This document shows, piece after piece, positions 7,735 to 56,550 of a stretch of 64,000 nucleotides of DNA. A program made the position numbers and the translations under genes. Position 1 is the stretch's first letter; every line of letters starts with the position of its first letter. The notes under the pieces are model-generated. The model was not told the origin of the DNA, searched no databases, and saw only the letters and a program-made list of their open reading frames with translations. Where the stretch lies: positions 57-64,056 of the forward strand of contig JBGFRZ010000032.1 of assembly GCA_041694835.1 (NCBI GenBank). Direction: 5' to 3'. The stretch is from Ignavibacteria bacterium. Lineage in GTDB: Bacteria > Elusimicrobiota > Endomicrobiia > PHAN01.

Positions 7735-9665
7735 ACACTCCCCTTTGATTTTTGCCTGATAAAATTCAAGAGACCCCCGGATTGTATTATCGCTTTATCC
7801 CGCGTGGTCAGTTTTAGTGCAAGTTTTATTGTTTGAGATGTCTCATATATTTTCGCCAAAATATTATCCGAAGCGAAGTTGATTTTATCTATGATAAGAT
7901 GCTGAGCCCGTTTGATATTTTGGTAATCATAAGCATTCGAAAAAACTGCGGGCAGGAGCCCAAAATTAACAAGATTTGCCAGATGAATTCTCGCGAACGA
8001 TTTTGCCATCACGACACTAACTCCGAGATATTTCAACACAAGAGCGGCATGTTCCCTTGAAGAGCCCTGACCGTAATTTTCCCCCGCAACTATAAATCCG
8101 CCTTTACTTTTTTGCGCTCTCCTTGCGAACTCCTTATCTATGGCGTTGAACGTAAATTCCGATATCGCCGGAATATTAGAACGAAGCGGCAGAATTTTTG
8201 AGCCGGCGGGAAGTATGTGGTCGGTTGATATATTGTCGGGAAGTTTCAGCAAAACCGTTCCCGAAAGCGAACATGGAAATTTTCCGAAAACGGGAAGCGG
8301 CTTTATATTAGGACCTCTTACTATCTTGACTTCAGAGGGCTTTGCGGAAGGTGCAAGAAACATTTTTTTATCCAGCATGAGTTTCGGCATCTTGCGTCTC
8401 ACATGGAATTTAAGCGACTTCTTCGGATCCATCATTTTCCCATTTAGGGCGGCGAGCGCCGCTGTTATGGGACTTGCAAGATATACTTTTGCATCCATGG
8501 TTCCGCTTCTGCCCTCGAAATTTCTGTTGAACGTCCTTATGCTTACACCCGACGAGACAGGCGCCTGCCCCATCCCTATGCAAGGCCCACAGGCGCATTC
8601 AATAATCCGCGCGCCGCTTTTTATCAACTGCGTCAAATATCCGTGTTTTGCCAGAGTCATCAGGACGCTTCTTGAACCTGGCGCTATTACCAGGGATGTG
8701 TCAGGGTGAATCTTTTTATCATTCAGTATCCCGCTTACGACTATCATGTCAGCCAGCGACGAATTCGTGCAGCTTCCTATGCAAACCTGATCTACCTTCA
8801 GTCCAACGATTTCCGCCGCTTTCTTTACATTGTCAGGGGTGTGTGGAAGAGCCACCATCGGTTCGATTTCTGAAAGTTCTATTTCTATTTTTTCGTCGTA
8901 ACCGGCACCATCGTCAGCTGAAAGTTCAGAAAAATATTTTTTCCGTCCCGTTTCCTCAAGAAACTTCCTTGTGACGCCATCCGAAGGGAATATGGATGTC
9001 GTGGCGCCGAGTTCCGCTCCCATGTTTGCTATCGTCGCCCTCTCGGGGACTGAGAGCGTTTTTACTCCAGGGCCACTGTACTCGAATATCTTTCCTGAGC
9101 CGCCTTTTACGCCGAAGCGCCGCAGCAACTCAAGAATAACATCTTTCGCCGAGGAATAATGTTTCAGACGACCAACAAGATATACGTTTACGATTCGCGG
9201 CATCTCTATCGTAAATGGAACGCCAGCCATAGCGCATGCGACATCAAGTCCGCCAGCGCCGAAAGCCAACATTCCGATTCCGCCCGCTGTCGGCGTATGA
9301 CTGTCCGAGCCTATAAGCGTTTCTCCCGGAACAGCGAAGTTTTCAATGTGAAGCTGATGGCAGACGCCGTTCCCCGCCCCGGAAAATACGATGCCGTATT
9401 TCGACGCTACACTCCGAAGATATTTGTGGTCATCGGCGTTTTCAAATCCCGTCTGAAGTGTGTTGTGGTCGATGTAAGATACGGAAAGTTTGGTTTTTAC
9501 CTTGTCTATCCCCAAAGACTCGAACTGAAGATAAGCCAGTGTCCCTGTGGCATCCTGGGTTAGCGTCTGATCTATCCCGATTTGAATCTCGCTTCCGCAA
9601 AGCATTTCCCCTTTTACGAGATGTTTTTTTAAGATTTTTTGAGCTAAATTCATGGCGGGCTTCAT
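7731..9665 (-). CDS. Aconitase-family hydratase (fused catalytic plus swivel domains; aconitate hydratase or homoaconitase-like)
   Basis: SDSHT motif, Fe-S Cys ligands in CIGSCTNSS and CGPCIGMG, C-terminal swivel domain GQGSSREHAAL. Confidence 0.75.
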   Translation of the reverse strand: MKPAMNLAQKILKKHLVKGEMLCGSEIQIGIDQTLTQDATGTLAYLQFESLGIDKVKTKLSVSYIDHNTLQTGFENADDHKYLRSVASKYGIVFSGAGNGVCHQLHIENFAVPGETLIGSDSHTPTAGGIGMLAFGAGGLDVACAMAGVPFTIEMPRIVNVYLVGRLKHYSSAKDVILELLRRFGVKGGSGKIFEYSGPGVKTLSVPERATIANMGAELGATTSIFPSDGVTRKFLEETGRKKYFSELSADDGAGYDEKIEIELSEIEPMVALPHTPDNVKKAAEIVGLKVDQVCIGSCTNSSLADMIVVSGILNDKKIHPDTSLVIAPGSRSVLMTLAKHGYLTQLIKSGARIIECACGPCIGMGQAPVSSGVSIRTFNRNFEGRSGTMDAKVYLASPITAALAALNGKMMDPKKSLKFHVRRKMPKLMLDKKMFLAPSAKPSEVKIVRGPNIKPLPVFGKFPCSLSGTVLLKLPDNISTDHILPAGSKILPLRSNIPAISEFTFNAIDKEFARRAQKSKGGFIVAGENYGQGSSREHAALVLKYLGVSVVMAKSFARIHLANLVNFGLLPAVFSNAYDYQNIKRAQHLIIDKINFASDNILAKIYETSQTIKLALKLTTRDKAIIQSGGLLNFIRQKSKGSV

Positions 9666-10893: not shown

Positions 10894-12723
10894 TCATTCC
10901 ACCGTTACGGATTTTGCAAGATTTCGAGGCTGGTCGACGTCGTTTCCCCTCAAAATAGCGCAGTAATAAGCGAAAAGCTGCAATGGAACCACATTGACAA
11001 GTGGAGATATAAACTCATCGACATCGGGAACTGTTATCACAAAATCTGATTTTTGTTCAATGATTCGCTCGCCGACGTTTGCCAAAGATATCACCACCCC
11101 TAGCCGCGCTTTCACCTCTTCTATGTTCGAGAGAATCTTTTCATAAACGGAGCTTTTTGTCGCAATAACTACCACCGGCATATTTTCGTCTATTAAAGCA
11201 ATTGGACCGTGCTTCATTTCTCCAGCCGGATAGCCCTCGGCGTGAATATAAGAAATTTCCTTGAGCTTTAAAGCGCCCTCAAGAGCTATTGGATAGTTGA
11301 AGTTCCTGCCGAGATAAAGAAAATCCTTCGAGTGAAAAAATTTTTTCGCTATCTCCAAAATCTTTTTGCTCCCTTTCAGAACTTCGTTTATTTTCATCGG
11401 AACGTCCCATAGAGAAAATATCATGTTTTTTACCGATTCCTTCGAGACGGAGTTTTTCTTTATCGCCCAATCAAGCGTTAAAAGATAAAGGGCCGTAAGC
11501 TGCCCGATGAATGCCTTTGTAGAAGCCACGCCGACCTCCGGTCCACAGTGTGTATAAAGAGTACTGTCAGATTCGCGAGACGCCGTTGAACCCACAACGT
11601 TAGATATGACAAGGGTGTAGGAACCGCTCGATTTTGCGAGTCTCAAAGATGCCAACGTGTCGGCGGTCTCTCCCGACTGGGTTATCGCCATCACCATGGT
11701 CTTCGAATTTAAAATCGGGTTTCTGTACCTGAACTCCGAGGCTATATCCACTTCGCATGGAATTTTAGCGTAGTTTTCAAAAAGGAATTTTCCGACGAGG
11801 CCGGCGTGGTAAGAAGTCCCGCAGGCGACTATGTATATTTTCTGAATGCTTTTTACGAGTCCTTCGGGTATTTTGAGCTCCTCATCGAAAGAGAGCCTCG
11901 ACTGCTCGGGATATATCCGCCCCCTAAAAGTATCCTGAACGGCCTGAGGTTGTTCGAATATCTCCTTCAGCATGAAATGCTTATATCCCCCTTTCTCCGC
12001 CTGAATCGGATCCCATCTTACAATATGAACCATGCGATTTACGATTTTTCTTTTGTTGTAAACTGTTACGCTGTTTTTCCTGATATCGGCGACATCGCCG
12101 TCTTCAAGATATATAACTTTTTTCGTGTAAGGTAGTATCGCGGGGATATCTGACGCGATATAGTTTTCACTTTCGCCCACACCAACTATTAAAGGGGCGT
12201 CCTTTCTTGCGGCTATCATCCTTGTCTTGTCAAGTTTTGAAATAACCCCCACGGCATACGCTCCGACTATTTCATCGATTGTGCAAAAAACCGCCTCAAG
12301 AAGATCGCCTTTGAAGTTTTTTTCGACGGTATGGACTATCACCTCCGTATCGGTCTCTGAATCGAATTTATGATTGGATTTTACAAGCTGATTTTTCAGC
12401 TCCACGTAGTTTTCTATTATACCATTGTGGACAAGGACTATATCATCATTGCATGATGTGTGAGGATGAGCATTTTCCTCCGAAGGCTTGCCGTGCGTCG
12501 CCCATCTTGTGTGACCTATACCGACGGAGCCTTTAATTGGCGAGGCTTTGATGGCAAGTTCTAACTGAGCGATTTTCCCGGTGCCCCTGATCCGTCGTAT
12601 CTCGTCGTTTTCAATCACGGCAATCCCGGCAGAATCGTAGCCCCTGTATTCAAGCCTTTTTAATCCGTCGATGATAACGGGGACGGAGTCGCTGTCGCCT
12701 ATATATCCGACTATTCCGCACAT
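10894..12723 (-). CDS. glmS: Glutamine--fructose-6-phosphate aminotransferase
   Basis: N-terminal MCGIVGYIG (Cys2 nucleophile), two SIS domains, 609 aa. Confidence 0.95.
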   Translation of the reverse strand: MCGIVGYIGDSDSVPVIIDGLKRLEYRGYDSAGIAVIENDEIRRIRGTGKIAQLELAIKASPIKGSVGIGHTRWATHGKPSEENAHPHTSCNDDIVLVHNGIIENYVELKNQLVKSNHKFDSETDTEVIVHTVEKNFKGDLLEAVFCTIDEIVGAYAVGVISKLDKTRMIAARKDAPLIVGVGESENYIASDIPAILPYTKKVIYLEDGDVADIRKNSVTVYNKRKIVNRMVHIVRWDPIQAEKGGYKHFMLKEIFEQPQAVQDTFRGRIYPEQSRLSFDEELKIPEGLVKSIQKIYIVACGTSYHAGLVGKFLFENYAKIPCEVDIASEFRYRNPILNSKTMVMAITQSGETADTLASLRLAKSSGSYTLVISNVVGSTASRESDSTLYTHCGPEVGVASTKAFIGQLTALYLLTLDWAIKKNSVSKESVKNMIFSLWDVPMKINEVLKGSKKILEIAKKFFHSKDFLYLGRNFNYPIALEGALKLKEISYIHAEGYPAGEMKHGPIALIDENMPVVVIATKSSVYEKILSNIEEVKARLGVVISLANVGERIIEQKSDFVITVPDVDEFISPLVNVVPLQLFAYYCAILRGNDVDQPRNLAKSVTVE

Positions 12724-12751
12724 ATTAGTGATTAGTGATAGTGGTTAGTTA

Positions 12752-13023
12752 GTGTCCTGTCCCGCAAATACCTTTACATTTGAAGGGTAAGATTTGAGAC
12801 GGATTCAAGAAACGACGAGTGCGGTGTAGTCTCTGGACTACATAAACGAGGAGTGACGCAGAAGCCGTCCAAATAATACCCTTCCCGAAGGGCTGATGTC
12901 TTTTGTTCATCGTCGGCGTTGCTCGTCGCTCACATACCGCAGAGGGTATGCTTCGCTCCTCGCGCCTTGACGCTGAAACAAAATACGAACAGCGAATGTA
13001 AAGGTATTTGCGGGACAGGACAC
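12752..13023. repeat. 272-bp element bounded by perfect 29-bp inverted repeats (GTGTCCTGTCCCGCAAATACCTTTACATT / AATGTAAAGGTATTTGCGGGACAGGACAC) filling the glmS 5' leader; candidate structured leader RNA or MITE
   Basis: Exact reverse-complement termini at 12752-12780 and 12995-13023; GC-rich interior with several local hairpins (CCCTTCGGGAAGGG, GTAGTCCAGAGACTAC). Confidence 0.5.
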
Positions 13024-17662: not shown

Positions 17663-19505
17663 TTAAGTGCTCGTTTGCATTTGTGAAAACGGTGCCGTTT
17701 ATAGGCGCAAGAGTACCGCCGGAAAGAATTGTGTCTACATCTTCTCCGTCAAGAACCTCCCTTTCGATAAGAAACTTCGCGAGGTGCACAAGTTTTTCCT
17801 TGTTGGCGCCAAGTATTTCAGATGCGCGGTTTTTGCATTTTTCAACTATATCTTTTGTTTCGGCGTCTATTATTTCAAGGGTTTTTTCCGAGAGGTGGTT
17901 CTGCCTCGCTATCTCTCTGCCGAGGAAGATTTCCTCTTCAGGTTTCTTTAACGAAAGGGGGCCGAGTTTCTCGCCCATGCCGAACTCATAGACCATCTTT
18001 CTTGCAACATCGGTTGCCTTTGAAAGGTCGTTTTGTCCACCGGTCGTTATCTCGTTGAACATCAACTCCTCGGCGCATCTTCCGGCGAGCAACACTGAAA
18101 GTCTTGCAAGGATTTCAGTTTTTGTCGTCAGATACTTGTCTTCAAGAGGGAGCTGAAGGGTGTATCCAAGCGCTGGTCCGCGCGGTATTATCGATACCTT
18201 ATGGACGGGGTCTGTTCCGGGCAAAATTTTTGCGACGAGGGCGTGGCCCGCCTCGTGATACGCTATTATGTTTTTCTCATGCTCGGATATCATCCTTGAT
18301 TTTCTCGCCGGGCCTGCTATAACCCTGTCGATAGCCTCTTCCATCTCCTCCATATTGACGGCTTCATTGTTTTTTCTCGCCGCAAGAAGCGCCGCTTCGT
18401 TGACGAGGTTTGCTATGTCCGAGCCAACAAAACCCGGCGTCCGTCGGGCTATTATCCTTAAATCCACTTTATCTCCTATACGCACTCCCCTGCAATGAAC
18501 TTTCAATATCTCTTCGCGTCCCTTCAAATCCGGGGTGGGAACGTTTATGTGTCTGTCGAATCTTCCAGGCCTTAAAAGCGCCGGATCCAGAACATCGGGT
18601 CTGTTTGTCGCTGCTATGAGAATCACCCCCTCTTTAGTGTCAAAGCCGTCCATCTCAACAAGAATCTGATTTAGGGTCTGCTCCCGCTCGTCGTGACCGC
18701 CGCCGATACCCGCGAATCTATGTCTGCCTACGGCGTCTATCTCGTCTATAAATAAAAGACATGGGGCACTCTTTCTTCCCTGCTCGAACAAATCCCTGAC
18801 TCTGGAGGCGCCAACGCCGACAAACATCTCGACAAACTCGCTCCCCGAAGACGAAAAGAAAGGAACCCCCGCTTCACCGGCGACAGCTTTCGCAAGAAGG
18901 GTTTTTCCCGTACCGGGAGCGCCGTAGAGCAGCACGCCTTTCGGTATTTTTCCGCCGAGCTTCTGGAATTTTTTCGGGTCTTTCAGAAATTCTATTATTT
19001 CTTTCAGTTCTTCTTTCGCCTCGTCGCATCCGGCGACGTTTTCGAAAGTTATCTTTTGATCCTTCTCCGACCTGAGTTTCGCCTTACTTTTTGCAAAAGT
19101 CATAACCTGCCTGCCACCGCCCTGCATATTGCGTAGCATGAATATCCAAAAGATGATAAACAGCAGTATCGGGCCAAAGTTCAGGAGAATCGTTCCGAAC
19201 CATCCCGCCCCTGTTTCCGCCGAATAACTTTTAACCCCGTATTTTGAGAGTTCGTCCGCAAGGCGGCTGTCGGGAAGGGCGGTGGTTTTGAATTTTATTT
19301 TTTTATCGTCGACGAGATACTCGCCTCTGAGCACATTTTCCTTTACAGTCAATCTTTCCACTTTGCCTTCTTTCAATTTTTCGTAAAAAGTGGAATATGG
19401 GATATCTTCGACGAGAGTGGACTCCCTGTATGTCCTCGTTAAGTAGAATATCGCAAAAAATAAAAGCACCCAAATCAAAAGGCTTGTCCAGTTTCTTTCC
19501 TTCAT
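17622..19505 (-). CDS. ftsH: ATP-dependent zinc metalloprotease FtsH
   Basis: Two TM helices, AAA+ Walker A GPPGTGKT-like [13 protein letters not shown] zinc motif. Confidence 0.95.
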
Positions 19506-20065
19506 TTTTCTCCTCTGTATATTTCAGGTTTTAATATTCCCACATAGGGCAGATTTCTGTATCTTTCCCTATAATCAAGACCGTATCCTACGAGAAATTT
19601 GTTTGGAACATCAAAACCCTTGTAATCGACTCTTACCTCTTTTCTTCTGGCCTCGAATTTATCGAGCAAGACGCATACTTTGAGAGATGCCAGATCTCTT
19701 GTCATAAAGTTTCTTAAAATATAATCAAGCGTATAGCCGGTATCGACTATGTCTTCAATAATGAGAATGTCTTTGCCAACAGGAGATTCCCTTAGATCCA
19801 TAATCATCCTTACAACGCCCGATGTCTCAATCCCGCCCCGATAAGATGAAACCGAAATAAAATCCACTTTGCACGGCATCGAGATATTTCTCATCAAATC
19901 TGCAAGAAACACGATGCTTCCCTTCAGGATGGAAACGAGAGTAAGCTCTTTGCCGCGATAATCTTCGGATATCCGAACGCCGAGTTCCCTGACTTTTTCT
20001 CTGATAGCGTCCTTTTCGATTAGAACTTTTTCGATGTCGTCGTTGGGGTTTATTGAAAACTTCAT
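19502..20065 (-). CDS. hpt: Hypoxanthine-guanine phosphoribosyltransferase
   Basis: PRPP-binding loop ILIIEDIVDTGYT. Confidence 0.85.
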   Translation of the reverse strand: MKFSINPNDDIEKVLIEKDAIREKVRELGVRISEDYRGKELTLVSILKGSIVFLADLMRNISMPCKVDFISVSSYRGGIETSGVVRMIMDLRESPVGKDILIIEDIVDTGYTLDYILRNFMTRDLASLKVCVLLDKFEARRKEVRVDYKGFDVPNKFLVGYGLDYRERYRNLPYVGILKPEIYRGEK

Positions 20066-21079: not shown

Positions 21080-21151
21080 TTACCAGGGGTGGGGATTGAA
21101 CCCACGACCTACGGCTTATGAGTCCGCTGCTCTACCACTGAGCTACCCTGG
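21080..21151 (-). tRNA. tRNA with anticodon CAT (elongator Met or lysidine-modified Ile2)
   Basis: Minus-strand sequence GCCAGGGTAGCTCAGTGGTAGAGCAGCGGACTCATAAGCCGTAGGTCGTGGGTTCAATCCCCACCCCTGGTA folds as a cloverleaf (D arm GCTC/GAGC, anticodon loop CTCATAA, T loop GGTTCAATCC). Confidence 0.75.
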
Positions 21152-21200
21152 CATTAAAAGGTGCGGGGCAAGTCCGCTGCTCTACCACTGAGCTACCCTG
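21152..21200 (-). pseudogene. tRNA 5'-half fragment (GCAGGGTAGCTCAGTGGTAGAGCAGCGGACT) plus an inverted-repeat spacer upstream of the intact tRNA
   Basis: Near-identical to positions 1-33 of the adjacent tRNA and ends inside the anticodon loop. Confidence 0.45.
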
Positions 21201-23420: not shown

Positions 23421-23606
23421 AAATAGAGGATAGAGATGAGAGAACAGAGGTGATAGTTCAAGAGTTGAGAGTTTAGAGTGTAGAGTTGAGAGATGTCGCC
23501 GGGTATCTCTAAACTCTAAACTAAGTTCTCTAAACTTGTCCTCTCGTCTCTGACCCTTGTCCCCTGACCTCTGACCTCTGTCCTCTGCTGCTCTTGTGCA
23601 CTATCA
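23421..23606. repeat. Low-complexity purine/pyrimidine dyad element A
   Basis: Purine arm AATAGAGGATAGAGATGAGAGAACAGAGG..., centre GTCGCCGGG, pyrimidine arm ...CCTCTGACCTCTGTCCTCTGCTGCTCTTGTGCAC. Confidence 0.7.
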
Positions 23607-29959: not shown

Positions 29960-30046
29960 CCTTTCCCGCCCCGCCTCTCCTCTATTCTCCCGCCTCTATC
30001 TTCTAAACTAAGTTCTCTGAACTTTCCAGTGCGTGCACTGGATAGC
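29960..30046. repeat. Partial low-complexity element B (pyrimidine arm plus CTAAACTAAGTTCTCTGAACTT motif shared with element A)
   Basis: CCTCTCCTCTATTCTCCCGCCTCTATCTTCTAAACTAAGTTCTCTGAACTTT. Confidence 0.45.
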
Positions 30047-30061
30047 GAAACATCAACAATC

Positions 30062-31507
30062 TCATTTTGCCAGTTCTGTTTTTGCTTCCGAAATATCCAC
30101 TCCGGTATTTTCATATTTTCTGATTATCCTTCTTAAGATATCTTTTTTTTCTCTTTCCGAAATACCGCGGTCCTTCAGTTGATAATAATATCGCATTGAA
30201 GTGTCGAACTCAATCTTTCTGTTGTCGATATCGGATTTTGCCGTAGAAATTCTCGGCGCTTTCTTTTCAACCGAAATTTCACGAGGCGGAATATATTCCA
30301 CAGCCGGCGACCTTTCCGCTTTCGGTTCTTCCTTTTCTTTTTCAGACGCAAGTAGTGATTCTAGTTCTTTCTTTAATCTGTCTTTCTCGTTCTCCAACCT
30401 CTCTACTTCTTTCAGGAGTTTTTCATTCTGGGACTTTTCCGTGAACAATTTTTCACTCAACTCTTTTAGTTTTTTGCTTTCGGGCGGTTTTCCGAATCTC
30501 ATATTAAGTGAAATCCTCTGAATGTCTCCGGAGTTCTTTATCCCAACCAAAGGGAATATATAAGAATAATTGAATCCAAACCATTTGAGTGAATGGCCGA
30601 AACCGACAGCAAACCTTCTCAGTTCCCTGCTTCCAAATGTCATGCCGCATCTTATGGCCGTTGCTCCATATTCTCCGAAATCAAAATGCCTTTCAGCCCC
30701 GAATGAAAACACATAGTCTAAGATGTTATTCGAGTACTCCTGAGCTGAAAAATCAGCGGAGAGATTTATCAGGGTCGTGTTCATTGCAAAGCCAATCGTT
30801 GATTTCATTTTTTTCGTGTCACCCGAGTTTTCAAACGACATATCCGGCTGATTGATGTCCTTGATAGAGAGCCCGATTTTGTAGTTTTCAGAGATGTTAT
30901 ACAAGATACCGGCATCCAGAGAGAAGAGCGTCTTCGACTTCCCAGTGAGATGGTCGGTTATGCCCCGTTTTGCTTTGCCAGTTTCATCCACGGAATTAAA
31001 GGAATAATCATCGGTTCCGATAGATTTTCTTAAAATTTTAGCAGTCAATCCGAAAACAATTTTTTTATATATTCCCGAGAGTGAAAAAGCGTAAGTCTCA
31101 TCCTTGTAGAACTCTCCGCCCAATAAAAAATATCCGAAAGCTGGCACATAACCCTTGTAAGGCAGCCCCGCCGCCAAATATACTTCCGACAATTTAGAGC
31201 CATCGGTTAATTTTGGATAAAGCGTTGTATAGGATGTGAATATCTCCGATGTTTTTATATTGTAAAGGCCGGCCGGGTTGTAGAAAATCGACTCGATGTC
31301 ATCCCCTGAAGCAACATAAGTCCCGCATACCCCGGAAGATCGGGAAGCATAAAGACAGGGGATAGTGAATAGCGAATAGCATATAGCGAATAGAGAATAG
31401 AGAATAGAGAATAGAGGATAGAGATTAGAGGTTAGGAAATGGAAATTATTACTCCTCTCCCTATCCGCTCGTCTATCTTCTCTCATCTCCGACCTCTGTC
31501 CTCTCAT
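30062..31507 (-). CDS. Putative outer-membrane beta-barrel protein (NPAGL-type N-terminal motif) with a C-terminal charged coiled-coil extension; start codon uncertain
   Basis: IFYNPAGL motif; beta-barrel-like middle; about 150-aa K/E-rich C-terminus. The first 50 or so codons are read through repeat element C and there is no in-frame ATG or GTG after the repeat. Confidence 0.45.
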   Translation of the reverse strand: MRGQRSEMREDRRADRERSNNFHFLTSNLYPLFSILYSLFAICYSLFTIPCLYASRSSGVCGTYVASGDDIESIFYNPAGLYNIKTSEIFTSYTTLYPKLTDGSKLSEVYLAAGLPYKGYVPAFGYFLLGGEFYKDETYAFSLSGIYKKIVFGLTAKILRKSIGTDDYSFNSVDETGKAKRGITDHLTGKSKTLFSLDAGILYNISENYKIGLSIKDINQPDMSFENSGDTKKMKSTIGFAMNTTLINLSADFSAQEYSNNILDYVFSFGAERHFDFGEYGATAIRCGMTFGSRELRRFAVGFGHSLKWFGFNYSYIFPLVGIKNSGDIQRISLNMRFGKPPESKKLKELSEKLFTEKSQNEKLLKEVERLENEKDRLKKELESLLASEKEKEEPKAERSPAVEYIPPREISVEKKAPRISTAKSDIDNRKIEFDTSMRYYYQLKDRGISEREKKDILRRIIRKYENTGVDISEAKTELAK

Positions 31508-31520
31508 CTCTGACCTCTCA
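31359..31520. repeat. Low-complexity purine/pyrimidine dyad element C
   Basis: GATAGTGAATAGCGAATAGCATATAGCGAATAGAGAATAGAG...GAGGTTAGGAAATGGAAATT...CTCTCATCTCCGACCTCTGTCCTCTCATCTCTGACCTCTCA. Confidence 0.7.
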
Positions 31521-31535: not shown

Positions 31536-34500
31536 TCATCTTGATACCGTCACAGTTCCGTTTATTACTTTGTCGTCGGATTCAATCTGATAGATATAAA
31601 TTCCCGAGGGCACTTTGTTTCCGAATTCGTCGTCGCCATCCCACCTTAAAGATGTTTCACGGTTTGGTCCCCTTTTATTCAGTTTTTTGACAAACCGCCC
31701 CATTTTGTCGAATATAAATCCGACGACTCTTTCTTCAATTCCCGGCGGGCCGTCAAAATTTATAATCAAAAAATCATTTTTATTGTCGCCGTTCGGGGTT
31801 ATTATTTTCGGATAAACGTCATCTTTTCCTACCGAGAATGTTGAGCGATTCGTTAGTTTTAGTTGAAATTTTCCCAGAACTGACGCTGCCACTGAAATCG
31901 TCTTGTTGAATCTGTCGACGGCACCACCGAATCTGATCCATCTCACTCCGTTGAACCAGTAAACGGCATACTCGCTTTCATAAGAACCCGGGGACATCAC
32001 CGCAGAACCCCTGTCAAAGTAAGTAAACGATATATTGAAAGTTTGTTCTTTTGGAACATTTTTTTCTTTATTTGATTTTATATCCCGAAGTGCTACAACA
32101 AAAGATTTTACCACGCGGCCGATTTTTTCCTCAGGCACTTCTGTAATCCTGAGCACTGAGTTCTCAGGCAAAATGGCCGATGTCTCAACAAACAAGTCTT
32201 TATTGTCGCTCATTACTATTATAACCGGCGCAGTCTTCGATGCCACTATTGCCGACGGCAGGCTTTCGTTTGAATATATATCCACAGCCTTTATCGTGTA
32301 ATAATAAACGTTTTTTTTTGTGTCTTGAGAAAATTCGTTCGACTTTAACGGAAGCATCGTTATTTTTTCGTATATCCCATCCATCGAAGTGCTCCTGTAA
32401 ACAAGATAACCGTCGATGTCGTAAATCGGGCTCAGGTCCTCGTTGTATTTAACTTCATCCCAAAATATTTGAAAAATCCCGCCCGAAAAACTCCCGCGAA
32501 CTCCGGTGGGAGCAAGTGGGGGCATTTTATCGACGACCTTATCGGTCATAACGTTGACAATATCAGTAGGGGCGGTTATTATTCCGTCGCCATTGAAGCC
32601 ATATAGACGGTAGTAGTATGTGGTGGAATGGCTCAAATTTCCATCGGTATAAGTTGAAGAAGAACCAGATATATTGTCGCTTACAACTGAAAAAAATAAG
32701 CCGTCAAGGGATCTCTCGAGTCTAAACTTGCTGGAGCCGCCCGTCGGAGATTGCCAGGAGAGCGTAATTGAATTTTTTGTTTTGGCTATACTCCCCAAAT
32801 TTCCGGGCGGATTGGCCAGGGTGTATTTTGAAACTACCGATGAACCGAATGAAACGCCGCTTGCATTCCCCGCTTTGATATATCTTGAATATTGTGTATT
32901 GGGTTCTAAACCGATTTCGTTCCAAGATATTGTTTCGTTTCCTTCAAGATTTTTCAACAGATGATTATCACCGGCTCTATAAATCTGATAATATGTCGCA
33001 GATGATGTTATCTCCCATGTCCAGTTGATCGCCACCGTGCTAACGGCTACCCCGCGAAAACCCAACGGCTCTGAAGGAATTGCCGGAAGTGTGATAGTTG
33101 AGATTGTTGTATCATATATCGTGGGTATACCCTCGCTATTGAACGCCTGAACCTTGTAGTAATATGTAGTCGCAGGCTCTAACCCTGCCGAGTCAGTAAA
33201 TGTTGTGCCCGTTTGGTTGTTTGCAAATGAGCTCAAGGTAAAGGTAGAGGTGAAGAAGTTATTCGTTGAGCGCAATACTCCCCATCTGGTTGATGCCGGA
33301 TTTCCGTTATTGCTCCATGTGATTTCTATTGAATGTGAAGTCCTCTTTAAAACATAACTATCAACGGGTGGCATCGCCATGGTATATCTTGAAGCGACGT
33401 TGGATGAAGATATTGATACGCTATTATATGCCGCCACATACCTGCTATAATTAGTATTAGCGGAAAAATTAGTTTCAAGCCAGATCGTCGTTCCGTGCGG
33501 CAACTCTGATAGCAATGCGTTTGTGGAACTAAATATCCTGAAACCATCTTCGTCAGGGGAGTTGTCTTTCCATGACCATAAAATCGAACCTGTCGACAAA
33601 ACCATGCCGCTAAACTCCGAAGGAGCGGATGGAACTCCGATGGGGCGGGTTGAAACGACGGAGGAAAAGGCACTTATAAAAATCTGCGGTGGAGCATCGT
33701 AAGAGTTCATCTTGTAAAAATATGTCGTTCCGTTGGTGACAGAGGTATCAACATAAGTATTGCTACGCGTAGTTCCTATAAGGGAATAGGTATTTCCGTC
33801 GGTTGAACGGTGAATTTCGTAGTAATCGAAGTCAAGATAACCGAGCTGCCCGAGCATATCATTCCAAAAAAGCTCAACCAACCCGCTTGAAGCCACTGAT
33901 TTGAGCCCGGTTGGAGGAGCGGGAACAATATCAAGGGCATAGCTGAACGCCTGTGTGAGCGACACAGTCGGCTCATCGATGGGAGAGATATTTCCGTCGG
34001 CGTCTTTTGATTTAATTGAAAAATAATATGTTGAAGAAGGGAAAAGACCGGAAATTCCGGTAATCTCTTCGGAGCCTGGAGATTGGGGGGACGGTGTATT
34101 ATTAAGCGAAGTGGCGACACTCCACCATGCAGTGGTATCTCCCAAAAGTGAGTTTATGGAAAACGTGGCGTATTTTATGATGTACTCTGAAACTTTCTTG
34201 TTCTGAGGAATATCTCCGGGGGCAATCCATGAGAGTTTGATCTCCCCTTCGCTCGCCCCTGTTACAGCAACAATGGATGTAACCGCTCTCGGCGGATAAA
34301 TATCCGCGATATAGTGTGAATTTTCATCCGACCATACGCTCTTCAACAAGCCCGAATCTATTGAAGCAACTGAAAAATAATATGTCGTTCTTATGGCAAG
34401 TTTTTTTATCAATATACTGTTAGTCGTGCCGATTCTTTTGGGCCTCGGATAGTTTCCCGAAAACGGTGTCGCCCATTGCGGACTCACGACATAACTTGAA

Positions 34501-36581
34501 GGGTTTATGCTGAAGGGGGCCGTCGCCATCCTGACAAGATAGTTGAGTGACTGCTGAGGTGTTTTATCATCGGAACCGTCTTGAAAAGATATGACCAGAT
34601 TTTCGTCGATATATTCTGCGATTGGCCCTGGCGGAGCTGATGGCGCAGCGTTGATTTTACCTGAATCTCTGTATGTGTTTTTGTAAATTCTTATCAAATT
34701 CGAAATGCCCGAAGACGGCGACCCCGAAACGACGAGATCCAGATCCCCATCGTTGTCTATGTCGCCGAAAACGACCGATGAGAGCTGGAGACCGAGATTC
34801 TGACCAAGAATCTCCTGGTCGGAATAAAACGTTCCGGAAGAATTCTTAAACAATATAAATCTCAAAAGACCGTTATTGTCCCTCCCTGTCACAACAATAT
34901 CCGGCCATCCGTCGGTGTTGTAATCGCCGAAGGCAAGCGAGCTATTGTCAACACCTGCAGCCAAACCCATTGGCTCCTGGTCGAGGCTAAAAACACCGTT
35001 TGTATTCTTAAAAAGAATAAGCCGTCTACCAGATGCTGTTCCATCAATTGTTCCGCTTACCGCTATATCCAGATCGCCGTCGAGGTCGTAGTCGCAAAAA
35101 GCCACAGAGCCGTTCTCAAGACCGATATTGACACCTAAGGGTTCTTGGTCGATTAAAAAAGTTCCGGAAGAATTCCTAAATAAAATGAATCTCCTGTTGC
35201 CTGTCGTATCTCTGCCTATGGCAGCAAGGTCAACCCATCCATCTTTGTTGTAGTCGCCGACGGACAGTGCCGAGTTGGAAAGCCCTGTCAAATCAAAACG
35301 CATCGTAAAACTTGAATTGTTGTTCTCATACACCCTTAAGTATCTGTTGTTGGGCAAACTACCAGGTCCGATGCCGCTTACGACAATGTCGTTGTCACCG
35401 TCATTGTCGAAATCCATCAAAACAACACACCCCATGACAAATCCGTCGGCGGAACCCATTGGTTCGCTGTCCAGAACAAACGGTGGAGTGCCGGAGGTGT
35501 TTCTGTAAACAAAAAATCTCCTGGTTGAGCCGTCAGGTGAACCGACCGCGATCTTGTCATCTTTACCGTCGGAATTTATGTCGCCGAAATAGAGGGAACT
35601 AGCCTGAAGGCCGACGGGAAATTCCTGCCACAACGAAAAATTTCCGACAGAATTTCTGTATATAACGTTTTTTCTGCTCACACCATCAAAGCCGCTGACA
35701 GCCAAATCTATGTAGCCGTCTGTGTCTATATCCGAAAAAGAAAAGCCGTTTTCGCTCGACAAAACATCACGAAGCCCCTCGAATGTTTGTGAGAGAAAAA
35801 AAGACGACGATACTGCAGTCGCCGTAGATGACCAGTTTGACTGGTTAGAGTTTTCGTCGAATGCAGATATCCATATATAGTGGGTGGCCGACGGGAGGAG
35901 CGAGGTGAGCATGAAGACATGGCTTGTGGCTGGTGAAAAATTCGATGATATAGAGATTTGATAAGTCGCTGTTTGCGGTGTGTCGGAAGGATTCGTTGAA
36001 TATCTTATTAAAAATCCGCCGCCGACTACCGAGCCGTTGTAAACATCATCGCCGGGAGCCGTCCATGTAAGTAAAATCTGGGCGGACAGCGTCGCCGAAA
36101 GATTCGTGATCTGCCCGGGAGGCAGTAAATCCCTCTGCGCCCAAGATGTAGCGGCATTAGAGATTGGAGAAAAGTTGGCAGGCGGAGATGATGTCCAAAT
36201 TCTGAAAAAGTATGTCGCCCCGCCGGTCAAACCGGTTATTGTGTGGCTTTGCGGCGCGCCGGAATTAACATTTGATGTGGATATTCTTATTTGCGCCGAA
36301 GCGGTTGACCAAACAACGTCGGAATCCTGCGAATGCTGTATGAAATATGTCGAACCAACAGGGAGGGAAGATGGACCGGGATACATCCATCCCAACACAA
36401 CCCCGCCTTCGGACTGCCCCCGGGTGGCGTTTAGATTTGTAACGGGGGACGGCTGGGCCGAAAGATAAAAAGGCCCCGCTATTAAAAAAAAGACAATTAG
36501 CGCTCCGTGACAAAAATAAAAAGCCCCCGCAAACCCGCGGTGGCTTGTAGATAAATGACTGACAAAATTAATTTTTATCAT
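31536..36581 (-). CDS. Large (1681-aa) secreted FG-GAP/fibronectin-III repeat protein with a T9SS type-B (CHU_C / gliding-motility-associated) C-terminal sorting domain
   Basis: At least six DxDxDGxxD FG-GAP calcium-binding repeats (e.g. FGDINSDGKDDKIAVG, GDIDNDGDLDLVVSG); Fn3-like segments; C-terminus ITPNGDNKNDFLIINF...LRWDGDDEFGNKVPSGIYIYQI typical of type-B sorting domains. Confidence 0.75.
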   Translation of the reverse strand: MIKINFVSHLSTSHRGFAGAFYFCHGALIVFFLIAGPFYLSAQPSPVTNLNATRGQSEGGVVLGWMYPGPSSLPVGSTYFIQHSQDSDVVWSTASAQIRISTSNVNSGAPQSHTITGLTGGATYFFRIWTSSPPANFSPISNAATSWAQRDLLPPGQITNLSATLSAQILLTWTAPGDDVYNGSVVGGGFLIRYSTNPSDTPQTATYQISISSNFSPATSHVFMLTSLLPSATHYIWISAFDENSNQSNWSSTATAVSSSFFLSQTFEGLRDVLSSENGFSFSDIDTDGYIDLAVSGFDGVSRKNVIYRNSVGNFSLWQEFPVGLQASSLYFGDINSDGKDDKIAVGSPDGSTRRFFVYRNTSGTPPFVLDSEPMGSADGFVMGCVVLMDFDNDGDNDIVVSGIGPGSLPNNRYLRVYENNNSSFTMRFDLTGLSNSALSVGDYNKDGWVDLAAIGRDTTGNRRFILFRNSSGTFLIDQEPLGVNIGLENGSVAFCDYDLDGDLDIAVSGTIDGTASGRRLILFKNTNGVFSLDQEPMGLAAGVDNSSLAFGDYNTDGWPDIVVTGRDNNGLLRFILFKNSSGTFYSDQEILGQNLGLQLSSVVFGDIDNDGDLDLVVSGSPSSGISNLIRIYKNTYRDSGKINAAPSAPPGPIAEYIDENLVISFQDGSDDKTPQQSLNYLVRMATAPFSINPSSYVVSPQWATPFSGNYPRPKRIGTTNSILIKKLAIRTTYYFSVASIDSGLLKSVWSDENSHYIADIYPPRAVTSIVAVTGASEGEIKLSWIAPGDIPQNKKVSEYIIKYATFSINSLLGDTTAWWSVATSLNNTPSPQSPGSEEITGISGLFPSSTYYFSIKSKDADGNISPIDEPTVSLTQAFSYALDIVPAPPTGLKSVASSGLVELFWNDMLGQLGYLDFDYYEIHRSTDGNTYSLIGTTRSNTYVDTSVTNGTTYFYKMNSYDAPPQIFISAFSSVVSTRPIGVPSAPSEFSGMVLSTGSILWSWKDNSPDEDGFRIFSSTNALLSELPHGTTIWLETNFSANTNYSRYVAAYNSVSISSSNVASRYTMAMPPVDSYVLKRTSHSIEITWSNNGNPASTRWGVLRSTNNFFTSTFTLSSFANNQTGTTFTDSAGLEPATTYYYKVQAFNSEGIPTIYDTTISTITLPAIPSEPLGFRGVAVSTVAINWTWEITSSATYYQIYRAGDNHLLKNLEGNETISWNEIGLEPNTQYSRYIKAGNASGVSFGSSVVSKYTLANPPGNLGSIAKTKNSITLSWQSPTGGSSKFRLERSLDGLFFSVVSDNISGSSSTYTDGNLSHSTTYYYRLYGFNGDGIITAPTDIVNVMTDKVVDKMPPLAPTGVRGSFSGGIFQIFWDEVKYNEDLSPIYDIDGYLVYRSTSMDGIYEKITMLPLKSNEFSQDTKKNVYYYTIKAVDIYSNESLPSAIVASKTAPVIIVMSDNKDLFVETSAILPENSVLRITEVPEEKIGRVVKSFVVALRDIKSNKEKNVPKEQTFNISFTYFDRGSAVMSPGSYESEYAVYWFNGVRWIRFGGAVDRFNKTISVAASVLGKFQLKLTNRSTFSVGKDDVYPKIITPNGDNKNDFLIINFDGPPGIEERVVGFIFDKMGRFVKKLNKRGPNRETSLRWDGDDEFGNKVPSGIYIYQIESDDKVINGTVTVSR

Positions 36582-36758
36582 TGTTTCGGTAGCCCAGCCG
36601 GCATCCGTTCAAACCCGAACCCCGTCGCCTTTCAACGACGGATTGTCCCATAACGCGGGATTTAGCCCTGTTGGCTTTGCGTCCCCCGGTTTCCCGGCAT
36701 CCCGACACAAAATCGGAACGTTCCCATATGACCAGCAGGGAAGGTTTGCCTTTGTCGC

Positions 36759-36946
36759 TATAATGAGATTATTGAAAAACCCATCTTTTTCACTTAAAGG
36801 GCAGTTTCTTAACGGTTAAAAGTTTCAATCAGACCGCAAAACTCCTCGCTTTGCTCGTCAGACATTGCGGTCTAAACGATTTCAACTTTTAACCTGAAAC
36901 TGCCAAATCGTTCAAAAGATTAAGGTTTTTCAACGAGCTCATAATA
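36759..36946. mobile_element. Roughly 190-bp imperfect-palindrome element, copy 2
   Basis: Differs from copy 1 at only a few positions; terminal repeats TATAATGAGATTATTGAAAAACC ... GGTTTTTCAACGAGCTCATAATA. Confidence 0.65.
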
Positions 36947-39672: not shown

Positions 39673-41515
39673 TCTCTGCGTCTATAGAAACACTAACCGA
39701 ATAATTCCTTGAGCTCCGAACAGCAGAAATAATTTTCGAAAAATCGCCGTTTCCCTTCAAAATTATTTTCCAGAGATACCGCTTCCTTAATTTCTTCCGA
39801 TAATCACTTGATGGACCGACGATTTCCGCCTCTAAGTTGTTTTCGTTTAATATCTTTTCCATGAGAGTGGACGTTTTTTCGGCGTATAACTTGGCCAACT
39901 TATCATTTTTGCTCCTGAAGGTCAGCGTTATCAGACGGGCGTAAGGAGGGTATTTGAGTTTTTTTCTTTGTTTCAACTCTTCGGAATAAAACTCCTCATA
40001 ATTTAATTTGAAGGGGTAGTAATCCGGGAAGTGGGTTTCGACATAGAGCTCGGGCTCTTCGGCTTTCTTTGATAAAAGTTCGCTATAATCCGCCATCTTC
40101 AAAAATATTTTTTCATTGGAAAAATACTCCGGATGCATGAAATCGAAATCCGCATTCAATAAAATGACAAGTCCTATATCAGACGACACCATATAATGCC
40201 TGGGAGGATGTGTGGCGATGATGAAATCGGCTGATAACGACTCTTTATTTTTATTGCTTTTGTATGAATTCCTGGCGTCGAGATCGTAACGGGTTATAGT
40301 CGCACACGGATAAAGCTGTCTTAAGGACTCCTCGATTTTTTGCGTTCCAAAAGAAAGAGCGGTAAGATTCCGAGAGCCGCAGATATTGCATAATGGGGCA
40401 TAGACGATCTGTCTGCCACAGTAGTTGCATCGGAGTATTTTTTCTTTCCCGGCGATGTAGAGCGTGAGGGGTATGTCGCAGTCTTCGCATTTCAAAATCC
40501 TTTTGCATGAGCCGCAGTAGTATCCCCCGGAAAAACCTTTCAGCGGATAGTGTATAAGCGTGGTAAGCTTTTTGATGTAATTTCTGTCGATACTTTCCTT
40601 TAAAATTGAGATAATGTCATAATTCCTGCTCTTATATTTTTTAACGATTTCCCAATGATTTTTTTTATACGCATCGGGAGGTTTTTCCGTCAACTTTTTC
40701 ACGCCGCCTTCTTTGATTTTGGAATAGATGTCGACTGAGAACGCGGATCCTCCGAAAATAACTCTTATCTTATATCGCTCCGATTTTTTGAGCGCCACGT
40801 TTCTTGTGTTGTAATAAGGGCGCCGTCCATCCTTGTGGGCGTAGTCGTACTCTCTGTCAACAATTATGGTCCCGAGGTTGTTGAGTGGCAAAAACACGCT
40901 TCTTCTTGTGCCTATCACAAAACTGCATTCGTTCAAGAGTAGTTTTTCGAATGTTTCCGATTGCATTTTTTTTGATAAATCCGAACTCCAGACAACGGGC
41001 TCGAATCTGGCGTAATAATTTTTCGCCCAAACAACATCCGAAAGCGTTGGTAGAACAAGAAGCACGCTTTTTTTTGCGCTGAGCCCATCTGATATTTCTT
41101 TTTTGTAAAAATCATATCTTTCATCGTTCCCGAGGAATGCGGCGAAAAGAGTACTTTTGTCTTTTCCATTATTTATCTCTGGATTTTTTGATGCGGTTTT
41201 TATGTGTTTAAAATCAATCGGATATATCAGATTCAACACCGCGCCAACGGAAACAAAGTAATGCTCGCTCAAGGCATTTGCGAATGCGAGGGCTTTTTCG
41301 TCAATAACCGGGGTTTCGTCCACTGATGAGATTACTTCCTTTAATTGATGCTTAAGATGAGGTTCTTTTTTGCCAACATCGACGACATATCCAAGGCGGG
41401 ACGTGCTTCCGAAAGGGACATTCACCCTTGAACCGACAGATAGATTTATGCTCACAGGGACAGCATAATCAAACTCTCCGTCGGGAGGCTTTGGAAATAC
41501 TACTTTTGCAAACAT
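39662..41515 (-). CDS. PriA-like protein with degenerate ATPase motifs (primosomal protein N' homolog lacking Walker A/B and the arginine finger)
   Basis: PriA-type N-terminal 3'-DNA-binding domain (FDYAVP...RVNVPFG), motif Ia LLVLPTL, PriA Cys-rich zinc module (CGSC...CEDC...CNYC...CNIC); Walker A position reads GNDER, DEEH reads DREY, the GRAGR region is absent. Confidence 0.65.
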   Translation of the reverse strand: MFAKVVFPKPPDGEFDYAVPVSINLSVGSRVNVPFGSTSRLGYVVDVGKKEPHLKHQLKEVISSVDETPVIDEKALAFANALSEHYFVSVGAVLNLIYPIDFKHIKTASKNPEINNGKDKSTLFAAFLGNDERYDFYKKEISDGLSAKKSVLLVLPTLSDVVWAKNYYARFEPVVWSSDLSKKMQSETFEKLLLNECSFVIGTRRSVFLPLNNLGTIIVDREYDYAHKDGRRPYYNTRNVALKKSERYKIRVIFGGSAFSVDIYSKIKEGGVKKLTEKPPDAYKKNHWEIVKKYKSRNYDIISILKESIDRNYIKKLTTLIHYPLKGFSGGYYCGSCKRILKCEDCDIPLTLYIAGKEKILRCNYCGRQIVYAPLCNICGSRNLTALSFGTQKIEESLRQLYPCATITRYDLDARNSYKSNKNKESLSADFIIATHPPRHYMVSSDIGLVILLNADFDFMHPEYFSNEKIFLKMADYSELLSKKAEEPELYVETHFPDYYPFKLNYEEFYSEELKQRKKLKYPPYARLITLTFRSKNDKLAKLYAEKTSTLMEKILNENNLEAEIVGPSSDYRKKLRKRYLWKIILKGNGDFSKIISAVRSSRNYSVSVSIDAESAA

Positions 41516-41520
41516 ATTTC

Positions 41521-41565
41521 GCTATTTGCTATTTGCTATTCGCTATTCGCTATCTATAGCGCGAC
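41521..41565. repeat. Short low-complexity element D (GCTATTTGCTATTTGCTATTCGCTATTCGCTATCTATAGCG)
   Basis: CTATTCGCTATTC unit shared with elements C, E and G; supplies the last codons and the TAG stop of the SpoIID-like gene. Confidence 0.5.
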
Positions 41566-42984: not shown

Positions 42985-43005
42985 AATTTTAGCGGCGAAG
43001 GCAGA

Positions 43006-43250
43006 AGTGCACAAGAGCGCAAGAGCACAAGTCAGAGGACAGAGTTCAGGGAACAGAGAACAGAGGTCAGAGGCTAGAGGCGAGGGACAAGAGGTTAGGG
43101 AATGGAAATTTTTATTCAATTTCTTGTCCCCTATCCTCTATTCTCTATACGCTATTCTCTCACCTCTGACCTCTCACCTCTCATCTCTCATCTCTATCCT
43201 CTATTCACTATTCGCTATTCGCTGTCCTACAGTCTCTAATCTCTGCTGCT
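43006..43250. repeat. Low-complexity purine/pyrimidine dyad element E
   Basis: GCACAAGAGCGCAAGAGCACAAGTCAGAGGACAGAG...GGTTAGGGAATGGAAATTTTTATTC...TCACCTCTGACCTCTCACCTCTCATCTC...CTATTCACTATTCGCTATTCGC; the central GGAAATGGAAATT motif is shared with element C. Confidence 0.7.
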
Positions 43251-54270: not shown

Positions 54271-54377
54271 GCACAAGGCACAAGAGCATAAGTCAAGAGC
54301 ATAAGTGCACAAGAGCACAGTAAAAACCTCACCTCTCATCTCTATGCTCTATCTTCTATTCACTATTTGTTATTTGC
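54271..54377. repeat. Low-complexity element F (GCACAAGAGCATAAG module followed by TCACCTCTCATCTCTAT and CTATTCACTATTTG modules)
   Basis: Shares modules with elements A, E, G and H. Confidence 0.6.
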
Positions 54378-56241: not shown

Positions 56242-56340
56242 AAGAACTCCAATTCCCCGCCTTGACAGGAACACCGTCCACATGGACTCCAATGCCATTG
56301 AATACGGAGTCCGCAGCGGCTGGGGAAATCTGGAACCATA

Positions 56341-56550
56341 GAGCACAAGAACACAAGTCAGAGGTCAGAGGTGAGAGATGAGAGAATAGCGTATAGAGGA
56401 TAGAGGATAGCAAATAGCAAATAGCGAATAGTGGTTGGTGACTGGTGACTTGTGGCTGGAGGAAATGAGCAACGAGCCACGAGCCACTAATCCTCTGTCC
56501 TCTGTCCTCTGTCCTCTGTTCTCTGTCCCCTGTTCTCTGCTCTCGGCGGT
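56341..56550. repeat. Low-complexity purine/pyrimidine dyad element G
   Basis: GAGCACAAGAACACAAGTCAGAGGTCAGAGGTGAGAGATGAGAGAATAGCG...GGATAGCAAATAGCAAATAGCGAATAG...CCTCTGTCCTCTGTCCTCTGTCC. Confidence 0.7.

Follow-up and report, generated by a model that had tools for sequence, protein, structure and literature searches.

Tandem-heptamer repeat arrays, mostly set head-to-head, in operon spacers and within hisF of an uncultured Elusimicrobiota-like bacterium

The stretch of DNA analyzed here (hereafter the window) comprises 64,000 nt, positions 57 to 64,056 of contig JBGFRZ010000032.1 in the GenBank assembly GCA_041694835.1, and contains, beside a his-trp locus, a dispersed family of low-complexity elements that an initial annotation of the sequence had described as being assembled from a small set of modules. 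These elements are confirmed as real. Their host is an uncultured Elusimicrobiota-like bacterium; the nearest homologues of the proteins encoded in the window come from Elusimicrobiota metagenome-assembled genomes (MAGs). Nine loci carry tandem 7-nt units, some of them together with an 8-nt unit, GCACAAGA, far above chance. Seven of the nine lie in spacers or at gene ends, one lies within hisF and one at the edge of the window. Genes were assigned from Pfam matches and translations, and all those adjoining elements are encoded on the minus strand. The nine loci are given below in forward-strand coordinates, with no strand assigned to the elements themselves.

Window-edge fragment, 1-23: one arm, 2.8 copies of the pyrimidine-type unit TCTGTGTC; probably the right arm of an element truncated by the start of the window.
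Element A, 23421-23606: purine arm at about 23424-23492, center at 23493-23506, pyrimidine arm at 23507-23599, end CTGCTGCTCTTGTGCAC; occupies the spacer between a FecR-domain gene (stop codon at 23609) and a 254-aa open reading frame (ORF) (start at 23397).
Element B, 29960-30046: single arm, pyrimidine-rich on the plus strand, with a 22-nt motif in common with A at 30003-30024 and a small hairpin with 11-nt arms at 30022-30032 and 30035-30045; located between a TraF_2-like gene and a 1471-aa ORF.
Element C, 31359-31520: (ATAGAGA/ATAGCGA)n purine arm, center with GAGGTTAGGAAATGGAAATT, CTCT-type arm.
Element D, 41515-41565: one arm of five to six CTATTTG/CTATTCG units, crossing the SpoIID stop codon (41543), the spacer and the priA start (41515).
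Element E, 43001-43250: purine arm of (GCACAAGA)n and (AGAGNNN)n, center with GAGGTTAGGGAATGGAAATT, long CTCT/CTAT arm; overlaps the QueH stop codon (43236), ahead of a DUF2905 gene.
Element F, 54271-54377: GCACAAG-type arm followed by a CTCAC/CTCAT/CTAT arm, the two being non-complementary; includes the trpE stop codon (54363) and ends 18 nt ahead of the trpG ATG.
Element G, 56341-56550: between the hisF stop codon (56569) and the conserved part of hisI; nested dyad of (TGGTGAC)n, then (GAGCCAC)n.
Element H, 56921-57192: in frame within hisF, encoding residues 134 to 224 approximately; in the mRNA sense, about 215 nt of (GACAGAG/AACAGAG)n broken by (GCACAAGT/GCACAAGA)n and followed by a CTCACCT-type arm of 45 nt.

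Every tract that had been pointed out in the initial annotation carries a repeat array on inspection of the sequence, and the modules proposed there resolve into tandem 7- and 8-nt units. Tandem Repeats Finder returned period-7 arrays of 3-30 copies at 23461-23587, 31362-31520, 41515-41553, 43033-43228, 56357-56539 and 56922-57188, and period-8 GCACAAGA arrays at 43001-43031 and 57077-57114. A period-7 self-match of at least 66% was observed in 513 sliding 42-nt windows versus 0 in five shuffles, and, when one mismatch was allowed, (AGAGNNN)3AGAG matched 51 times in the window versus 0.00 expected, so that the copies do share more than shuffled low-complexity sequence would give. On the purine strand the unit is AGAG followed by a triplet, most commonly GAC, AAC, GTC, ATG, GTG, GAT or AAT; further variants are AGCG or AGCA followed by AAT, and the octamers AAGAGCAC and AAGTGCAC. 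Units are shared within the genome, with a cosine similarity of 0.36 between one half of the window and the other, whereas comparison of loci from other genomes gave a median of 0. The elements are thus tandem-heptamer long simple-sequence repeats (LSSRs) that resemble the short tandemly repeated repetitive (STRR) sequences of cyanobacteria, and the earlier impression that they belong to no described repeat class has to be given up, since long heptanucleotide simple-sequence repeats are already known. A CRISPR array, on the other hand, had rightly been dismissed: in place of a constant repeat of 24-48 nt with unique spacers of similar size, the elements consist of contiguous 7-8-nt units in inverted arms.

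All six two-armed copies (A, C, E, F, G and H) run from a purine-rich (AGAGNNN)n arm through a center to a pyrimidine-rich (NNNCTCT)n arm. Matches to the AGAG pattern on the plus strand always fall in the left half of an element and those on the minus strand always in the right half, and an element with this dyad layout therefore reads alike on either strand. The order of purine arm, loop and pyrimidine arm that had been taken as usual stands for these six copies but not for B, D and the fragment at 1-23, which are one-armed. The accompanying proposal, that the second arm is complementary to the first and that the two would fold into a long imperfect hairpin, holds only in part. Compared with dinucleotide shuffles, A, E, G and H are predicted to fold better than chance, with z scores between -3.3 and -6.6 (A, -5.7 on the plus and -3.5 on the minus strand; E, -5.8 and -6.6; G, -4.5 and -4.9), whereas C folds weakly (-0.1 on the plus and -1.7 on the minus strand) and B, D and F, with z near 0, fold no better than their shuffles. 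When the 7-nt units were permuted within each arm, a control that preserves the vocabulary of AGAG facing CTCT, the native sequence outperformed the permuted ones in A (z = -2.1), E (-2.5) and H (-3.2) but not in C, F and G. Element F has different units in its two arms, and an inverted-repeat search found none in it; more generally, the copies vary freely in how long their arms are, in how many they have and in the order of units, and copies in other genomes likewise vary in the length and number of their arms, which are not complementary. The outcome of the unit permutation and the unlike arms of F indicate that the two arms of an element sample a common unit set independently and in opposite polarity. 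The arms are not true inverted copies of each other, and the hairpin potential comes mostly from their common unit vocabulary, complementarity being for the most part a by-product of AGAG facing CTCT. Rfam, searched at the gathering threshold and at E values up to 1, placed no family on the elements and gave only chance miRNA-like hairpin matches, and a promoter scan of the window gave no signal at them. Intrinsic-terminator-like sites in the window numbered 21 versus 18.6 expected and included nothing that defines the elements, one copy of which lies inside an ORF; the GC-rich stem-loop and U tract of an intrinsic terminator are not what the elements are made of.

The spacers filled by elements are those between the FecR-domain gene and the 254-aa ORF, the TraF_2-like gene and the 1471-aa ORF, a 1681-aa FG-GAP/fn3/CHU_C protein and the TraF_2-like gene, SpoIID and PriA, QueH and DUF2905, TrpE and TrpG, and HisF and HisI. 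In these co-directional operons an element begins just past a stop codon and reaches to within about 20 nt of the following start. Elements supply the stop codons of trpE and queH and extend the ORF calls of trpG, hisI and the DUF2905 gene. The description of the copies as lying between co-directional genes, inside hisF and across gene ends, where they lengthen ORF calls, is therefore in agreement with Pfam and translation. The stronger statement that they inflate ORF predictions applies to some calls, but the hisF copy is truly in frame in an otherwise intact gene, and the statement is too simple for the TraF_2-like ORF (30062-31507, minus strand), whose only in-frame ATGs are located within element C. 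Translated in this ORF, element C gives a charged stretch and then a hydrophobic stretch, LYPLFSILYSLFAICYSLFTIPCLYA; the predicted N-terminus resembles a signal peptide, and the repeat may have been co-opted. Two codons past the hisF stop, an ATG at 56562 (minus strand) stands in the hisI frame, which continues through element G apart from a single TGA inside it. The hisI frame read from this ATG (56200-56562) resembles the start of hisI in the close relative L004 (ATGAAAAAA), and element G may have landed in a variable 5' end of hisI. Directly downstream of element F, just within the 5' end of trpG, lies a perfect sigma-70 consensus (54210-54238, minus strand; TTGACA, 17 nt, TATAAT, 12 of 12 positions).

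The occupation of whole spacers in co-directional operons, from the stop codon almost to the next start, is in favor of functional cis-elements. These could be intercistronic hairpins resembling repetitive extragenic palindromes (REP) and bacterial interspersed mosaic elements (BIME), with an effect on mRNA stability, processing or translational coupling, or else arrays bound heptamer by heptamer by a protein of the cold-shock kind with affinity for single-stranded nucleic acid or for DNA. In the RNA, the purine arms form Shine-Dalgarno-like GAGGTGA strings and the pyrimidine arms resemble anti-Shine-Dalgarno sequences, and regulatory roles have been proposed for heptamer arrays elsewhere, with CspB binding as one protein per heptamer (PMC4679880; bioRxiv 10.1101/2022.06.06.494920). 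On the other hand, three of eight copies are one-armed or fold no better than shuffles, the order within the arms contributes little stability beyond what the vocabulary control already has, and the copies in coding regions cannot be spacer elements. A function of this kind is possible, if on balance improbable.

The copy within hisF allows the consequences for a conserved enzyme to be followed. The gene (56569-57585, minus strand, 338 aa) keeps its reading frame across the 272 nt of element H. Residues 1-133 and 225-338 of the protein align to residues 1-133 and 138-251 of PDB HisF, and 91 in-frame residues stand in place of a 4-residue surface loop after strand beta5; the (beta-alpha)8 barrel is intact despite the insert. 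In an AlphaFold model, the predicted local distance difference test score (pLDDT) is below 50 over residues 137-220, whereas the barrel from residue 30 or so scores mostly 80-97 per 10-residue block; the N-terminal 30 residues or so also have low pLDDT. The model suggests that element H would be translated as a disordered loop. A separate in-frame array of a different unit family, (CAAAGTT)x5, lies in hisH (58518-58551, minus strand), between PHMGWNQI and a YFYFVHSY motif, and the hisH of an Elusimicrobiota MAG, L001, carries five CAAATTA/CAAATGA units at the matching codon position (8988-9021). The two hisH arrays stand at the same codon position with unlike units, so that this coding array has persisted at its site as the unit itself changed. 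L001 has a syntenic his-trp locus in which hisF overlaps hisI and element G is lacking; hisF and hisI also overlap in L004, again with no element there. The absence of the hisF/hisI element from close relatives is a further point against a functional role. In other genomes, Elusimicrobiota and one NC10 bacterium among them, the HisF loop occupied by element H in the window carries arrays particular to each lineage, as follows.

L001 (Elusimicrobiota MAG): octamers of the AGGGAACA type, then CTTGTCAA octamers.
L004: (GATGCAA)4, then GTATCCN.
L125, the closest by HisF identity: five GNCAGCG-like units.
L126: 9.9 copies of GACAGAG in a single arm, running on from native AAA AGA CAG codons.
L003 (NC10 bacterium): (GCCGAGA)11, a loop, then the complement.

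In this comparison between species, the arrays of orthologous hisF genes differ greatly in unit and length. Among the 118 nearest parseable HisF homologues, a sample biased by the query's own insert, about 60 have a loop of at least 15 residues versus a baseline of 5-8. Many of the long loops are translated heptamer dyads, in a set that includes proteins named Nitrospirota, Deltaproteobacteria and Ratteibacteria; retention of a dyad at this site of hisF in several phyla, despite the turnover of its sequence, counts in favor of a functional role. Coding arrays are not confined to HisF. For example, PrmC of the NC10 bacterium contains an in-frame, one-armed (GAGCCGA)11 array (L003, 3503-3591) with the same unit as the hisF array of that genome. 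The same contig carries, at 11391-11466 and 19419-19515, AATGACC arrays followed by GTCATTC or ATTGGTC arrays, which contain TTGGTCA, one of the cyanobacterial STRR units.

The conservation of gene order and frame is also relevant to the assembly itself. Since the contig is metagenome-assembled and arrays of more than 200 nt exceed the length of short reads, the elements could be an artifact of low-complexity reads in a metagenome bin. However, gene order across every element agrees with the his-trp synteny of an independent genome, the hisF frame is preserved over 272 nt and the same architecture occurs in many independent assemblies, and we consider an artifact very improbable indeed.

The relationship among the copies is best seen at junctions of 20-25 nt of non-repeat sequence that pairs of loci have in common. 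GAGGTTAGGRAATGGAAATT is found exactly at 31428 and 43091, in the centers of C and E; CTAAACTAAGTTCTCTRAACTT is found exactly at 23516 and 30003, in A and B; and GTGCACAAGAGCAGCAGAGGACAGA is found exactly at 23577 and 57065, in A and H. Approximately zero such matches are expected by chance in each case. The first two pairs had been suspected from shared motifs, and the three exact junctions together show that sequence has been copied between loci and that the copies are related by descent, as had been argued against mere compositional bias. Outside the window, the motif AGGTTAGGRAATGGAAAT from the center of C and E gave 37 matches in a metagenome scan, none of them with period-7 flanks; by a rough estimate, about this number of matches is expected by chance.

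Exact internal junctions shared between loci, inverted arms about a center, a genome-specific vocabulary and in-frame copies in HisF, UvrA (see below) and PrmC, which recall Rickettsia palindromic elements (RPEs), would all suit non-autonomous mobile elements, such as MITEs (miniature inverted-repeat transposable elements), REP doublets forming hairpins (REPINs) or RPE-like sequences, that insert into spacers and in frame and whose arms would be tandem sites for a transposase encoded elsewhere. However, inspection of flanks by eye, including those at hisF/hisI and trpE/trpG, revealed no terminal inverted repeats, conserved termini or target duplications, and element ends are ragged, with lengths of 45-272 nt and no uniform size. 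In some pairs the center is conserved and the ends are ragged, the opposite of what a MITE would show, and elsewhere each copy has its own center; one-armed arrays run into native codons; and no transposase was found among the approximately 20 window proteins scanned with Pfam, the remaining proteins lying outside that scan. Mobility of this type is thus unlikely.

One genome per species was scanned for exact matches to five AGAG cores spaced 7 nt apart, and at least 120 loci were identified. Among the matches listed, to which the counts in this paragraph refer, AGAG arrays were found in Bacteroidota, Planctomycetota, Verrucomicrobiota, Acidobacteriota, Gemmatimonadota, cyanobacteria, Gammaproteobacteria and further groups, and isolates of Methylotuvimicrobium, Vibrio, Photobacterium and Myroides are among the carriers. 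Where neighboring arrays were opposite in polarity, the order was purine-to-pyrimidine in 16 cases and the reverse in none; when AGAG-core dyads were paired with Tandem Repeats Finder, the ratio including the window was 33:3 (binomial p = 2e-7), the three reverse-order dyads having poorly complementary units, and dyads of other, less skewed units gave 9:6. A typical foreign copy has 4-5 units in each arm and a center of 20-60 nt that is unique to it, and its two arms share the unit set but not the unit order. Unit vocabularies are alike within a genome and unrelated between genomes. About one-fifth of the foreign copies lie within long open frames; for example, in-frame AGAG dyads directly follow the UvrA interaction domain in two unrelated genomes (L022, 7703-7798; L023, 3629-3743 and 5944-6067). 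Flanking genes elsewhere were co-directional in 38 cases, convergent in 14 and divergent in 6 versus a background of 374, 88 and 83, and this near-background orientation lends no support to a terminator role; likewise, the lack of an enriched gene orientation at the flanks speaks against functional cis-elements in general, whereas the 33:3 polarity suggests a directional constraint that would suit them.

The same polarity, found in six of six cases in the window, raises the possibility that the elements are scars of directional repeat-writing or repair, in which both 3' ends of a break would be extended with purine-strand repeats, or the nascent purine strand would snap back, and the ends would then be joined into head-to-head arrays as in a telomere fusion. 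Arms that are unequal in length and non-complementary, the existence of one-armed copies and the unique 20-60-nt centers in other genomes would be expected from such a process. De novo synthesis at each break would not, on the other hand, give centers and junctions common to several loci; the diverse unit set does not point to a single template, three dyads are in the opposite order and no enzyme candidate was identified. We therefore view repeat-writing as quite unlikely. Primase sites and triplex or R-loop formation were also considered as possible causes of the polarity, but no claim is made for them.

Together, these data incline us, with moderate confidence, to regard the elements as largely selfish or neutral heptamer arrays of the STRR and LSSR kind that grow by slippage, spread by copying and are set head-to-head. 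Replication slippage would lengthen and shorten the arrays, and an inverted partner would arise, presumably via strand or template switching. Spread between loci would occur without a transposase through homology-driven copying, probably ectopic conversion or templated break repair, and arrays would be retained only where harmless, selection leaving in-frame or intergenic survivors. Selection would also eliminate perfect long palindromes, and their loss would explain the imperfect arms and the unique centers. Between cistrons, the transcript of either strand could fold into a long hairpin with mismatches at regular intervals; mRNA stability or translational coupling would be affected secondarily, if at all, the hairpin being a consequence that may be exploited in spacers. 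Slippage, copying between loci and selective retention fit the data. The elements are located where extra sequence is tolerated, namely operon spacers, gene termini and one HisF surface loop, and the turnover of hisF arrays in place among L126, L125, L004, L001 and L003 supports slippage and copying.

Several observations weigh against this account. Slippage alone explains neither the purine-to-pyrimidine polarity, nor the recurrence of the AGAG core across phyla, nor a vocabulary that is genome-wide and not seeded by local sequence, and these three points therefore keep the functional, mobile-element and directional-synthesis explanations alive. In the trpE/trpG spacer of L001 (13293-13388), an unrelated GC-rich hairpin, CCCCCCTGCCAGTTTTGCC ... 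GGCAAAACTAGGGGGG, stands where the window has element F; this different hairpin in the same spacer counts in favor of a functional role, and a hairpin as such may be selected there. In addition, unit counts in the long arrays of this metagenome-assembled contig may be inexact owing to short-read assembly.

A more speculative proposal, to which we give limited credence, is that head-to-head purine-to-pyrimidine heptamer dyads form a distinct, unnamed class of element found across phyla, made or maintained directionally and recurrently placed in frame in the same enzyme loops (HisF after beta5, UvrA after the interaction domain). Candidate directional mechanisms would include repeat synthesis at DNA ends, snap-back of a purine-rich nascent strand and a heptamer-binding protein, and such a class would be a general counterpart of the Rickettsia "selfish DNA in protein-coding genes". 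Heptanucleotide repeats have no accepted origin or function despite their abundance in many bacteria. The present analysis adds three testable regularities: units that join a constant 4-nt core to a variable triplet and belong to a vocabulary spanning the genome, a strong head-to-head purine-to-pyrimidine polarity, and repeated in-frame occupation of the same surface loops of conserved enzymes. Because pure local slippage predicts none of the three, they constrain the mechanism. From a practical point of view, these arrays lengthen or displace ORF calls, can provide a gene with its start codon, stop codon or N-terminus, and put disordered loops into otherwise well-conserved MAG proteins.

Other features of the window were recorded alongside the elements. 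Above threshold, Rfam matched only a tRNA gene (21081-21152, minus strand, 69 bits) and a c-di-GMP-I riboswitch (36585-36760, minus strand, 39.5 bits against a gathering threshold of 35), which lies directly upstream of the 1681-aa protein (31536-36581), whose CHU_C domain is a type IX secretion signal. A 27-nt inverted repeat, GTCCTGTCCCGCAAATACCTTTACATT (13021-12995) with its complement at 12781-12755, lies upstream of a glmS-like gene (10894-12723) and encloses about 213 nt; for the region 12755-13021, Rfam gave no match at E values up to 1. The start codon of the glmS-like gene is directly adjoined by a short (CACTAAT)n array (12724-12749). The hisB/hisH spacer (58990-59110) contains a long imperfect palindrome, CAGTTTCAGGTTAAAAGTTGAAATCGTTTAGACCGCAA ... 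TTGCGGTCTGATTGAAACTTTTAACCGTTAAGAAACTG, that is not built of heptamers.

Several known systems share features with these elements. The REP and BIME sequences of enterobacteria are hairpin-forming repeats in operon spacers that can affect mRNA stability, with palindromes of about 35 nt tied to REP-associated tyrosine (RAYT) transposases; the elements resemble them as hairpins in operon spacers, but no REP-type unit or RAYT enzyme was seen here. RPEs were reportedly described by Ogata and colleagues in 2000 as selfish palindromic DNA that enters the genes of conserved proteins in frame, at surface sites that tolerate it, and that also occurs in intergenic positions. They share a conserved consensus about 100-150 bp long and do not consist of tandem heptamers. 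In-frame palindromic insertion in conserved genes is found here as well, in hisF and, elsewhere, as UvrA dyads and the one-armed PrmC array, but beyond the unit vocabulary there is no family consensus, and centers differ. Terminal inverted repeats, target-site duplications and a uniform length, which would mark a MITE or REPIN, were absent from the flanks inspected by eye and from elements of 45-272 nt. In the strict sense, STRR units are CCCCAGT, TTGGTCA and CAACAGT and belong to heterocystous cyanobacteria, whereas the units here are AGAG plus a triplet and GCACAAGA, with the nearest proteins in Elusimicrobiota MAGs. MITEs inserted in frame are, like RPEs, palindromic selfish DNA lying both inside and between genes (reviewed in PMC10969869), and integron attC sites and PARCEL sequences (PMC2996958) differ in unit size and architecture.

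The closest parallels are found among heptamer repeats, which are the commonest long simple-sequence repeat in many genomes, with polymerase slippage proposed as their origin (Mrazek 2007, via PMC4679880 and PMC4692102). They are known from Calothrix, Nostoc, Xanthomonas, Beggiatoaceae and Geobacter, some as inverted pairs and occasionally within genes (PMC4692102, PMC4679880, PMC2700814). In Geobacter metallireducens, elements of four tandem GGGACCG-type repeats occupy 49 intergenic and intragenic sites and, as here, lie between and within genes, sometimes as opposite-strand pairs; however, their copy number is fixed, their unit is GC-rich, they are read as regulator-binding or RNA elements and they are not mosaic head-to-head arrays (PMC2700814). 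The TAACTGA repeats of marine Beggiatoaceae, cyanobacteria and Bacteroidetes likewise form a genome-wide heptamer family with a patchy phylogeny and are usually located just upstream of start codons, a minority overlapping or lying inside ORFs, but they consist of 2-6 copies of a single unit in a direct orientation tied to the downstream gene, with one inverted case, whereas the arrays described here are long, multi-unit and symmetric (PMC4679880). The cyanobacterial STRRs, the GGGAATC repeats of Xanthomonas and the GGGGA(C/T)T repeats of Nostoc, as described in PMC4692102 and in its summaries of Mrazek 2007 and Mazel 1990, are also dispersed 7-nt tandems, mostly intergenic, including within operons, that vary in length and sequence among relatives and include some inverted pairs able to form stem-loops (PMC4692102). 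Head-to-tail 7-nt units beyond chance, at many dispersed and mainly non-coding loci, place the present elements among heptanucleotide LSSRs in the broad sense. They differ from the STRR, Xanthomonas and Nostoc arrays in their Elusimicrobiota-like host, in an AGAG core with a variable triplet in place of a G-rich unit, in being mosaics of 7-10 unit variants plus an 8-mer and in having in-frame copies in conserved enzymes. Within the partial literature searched, the composite head-to-head architecture, its polarity and the recurrent in-frame colonization of genes appear undescribed, head-to-head pairing being the exception in those arrays and the rule here.

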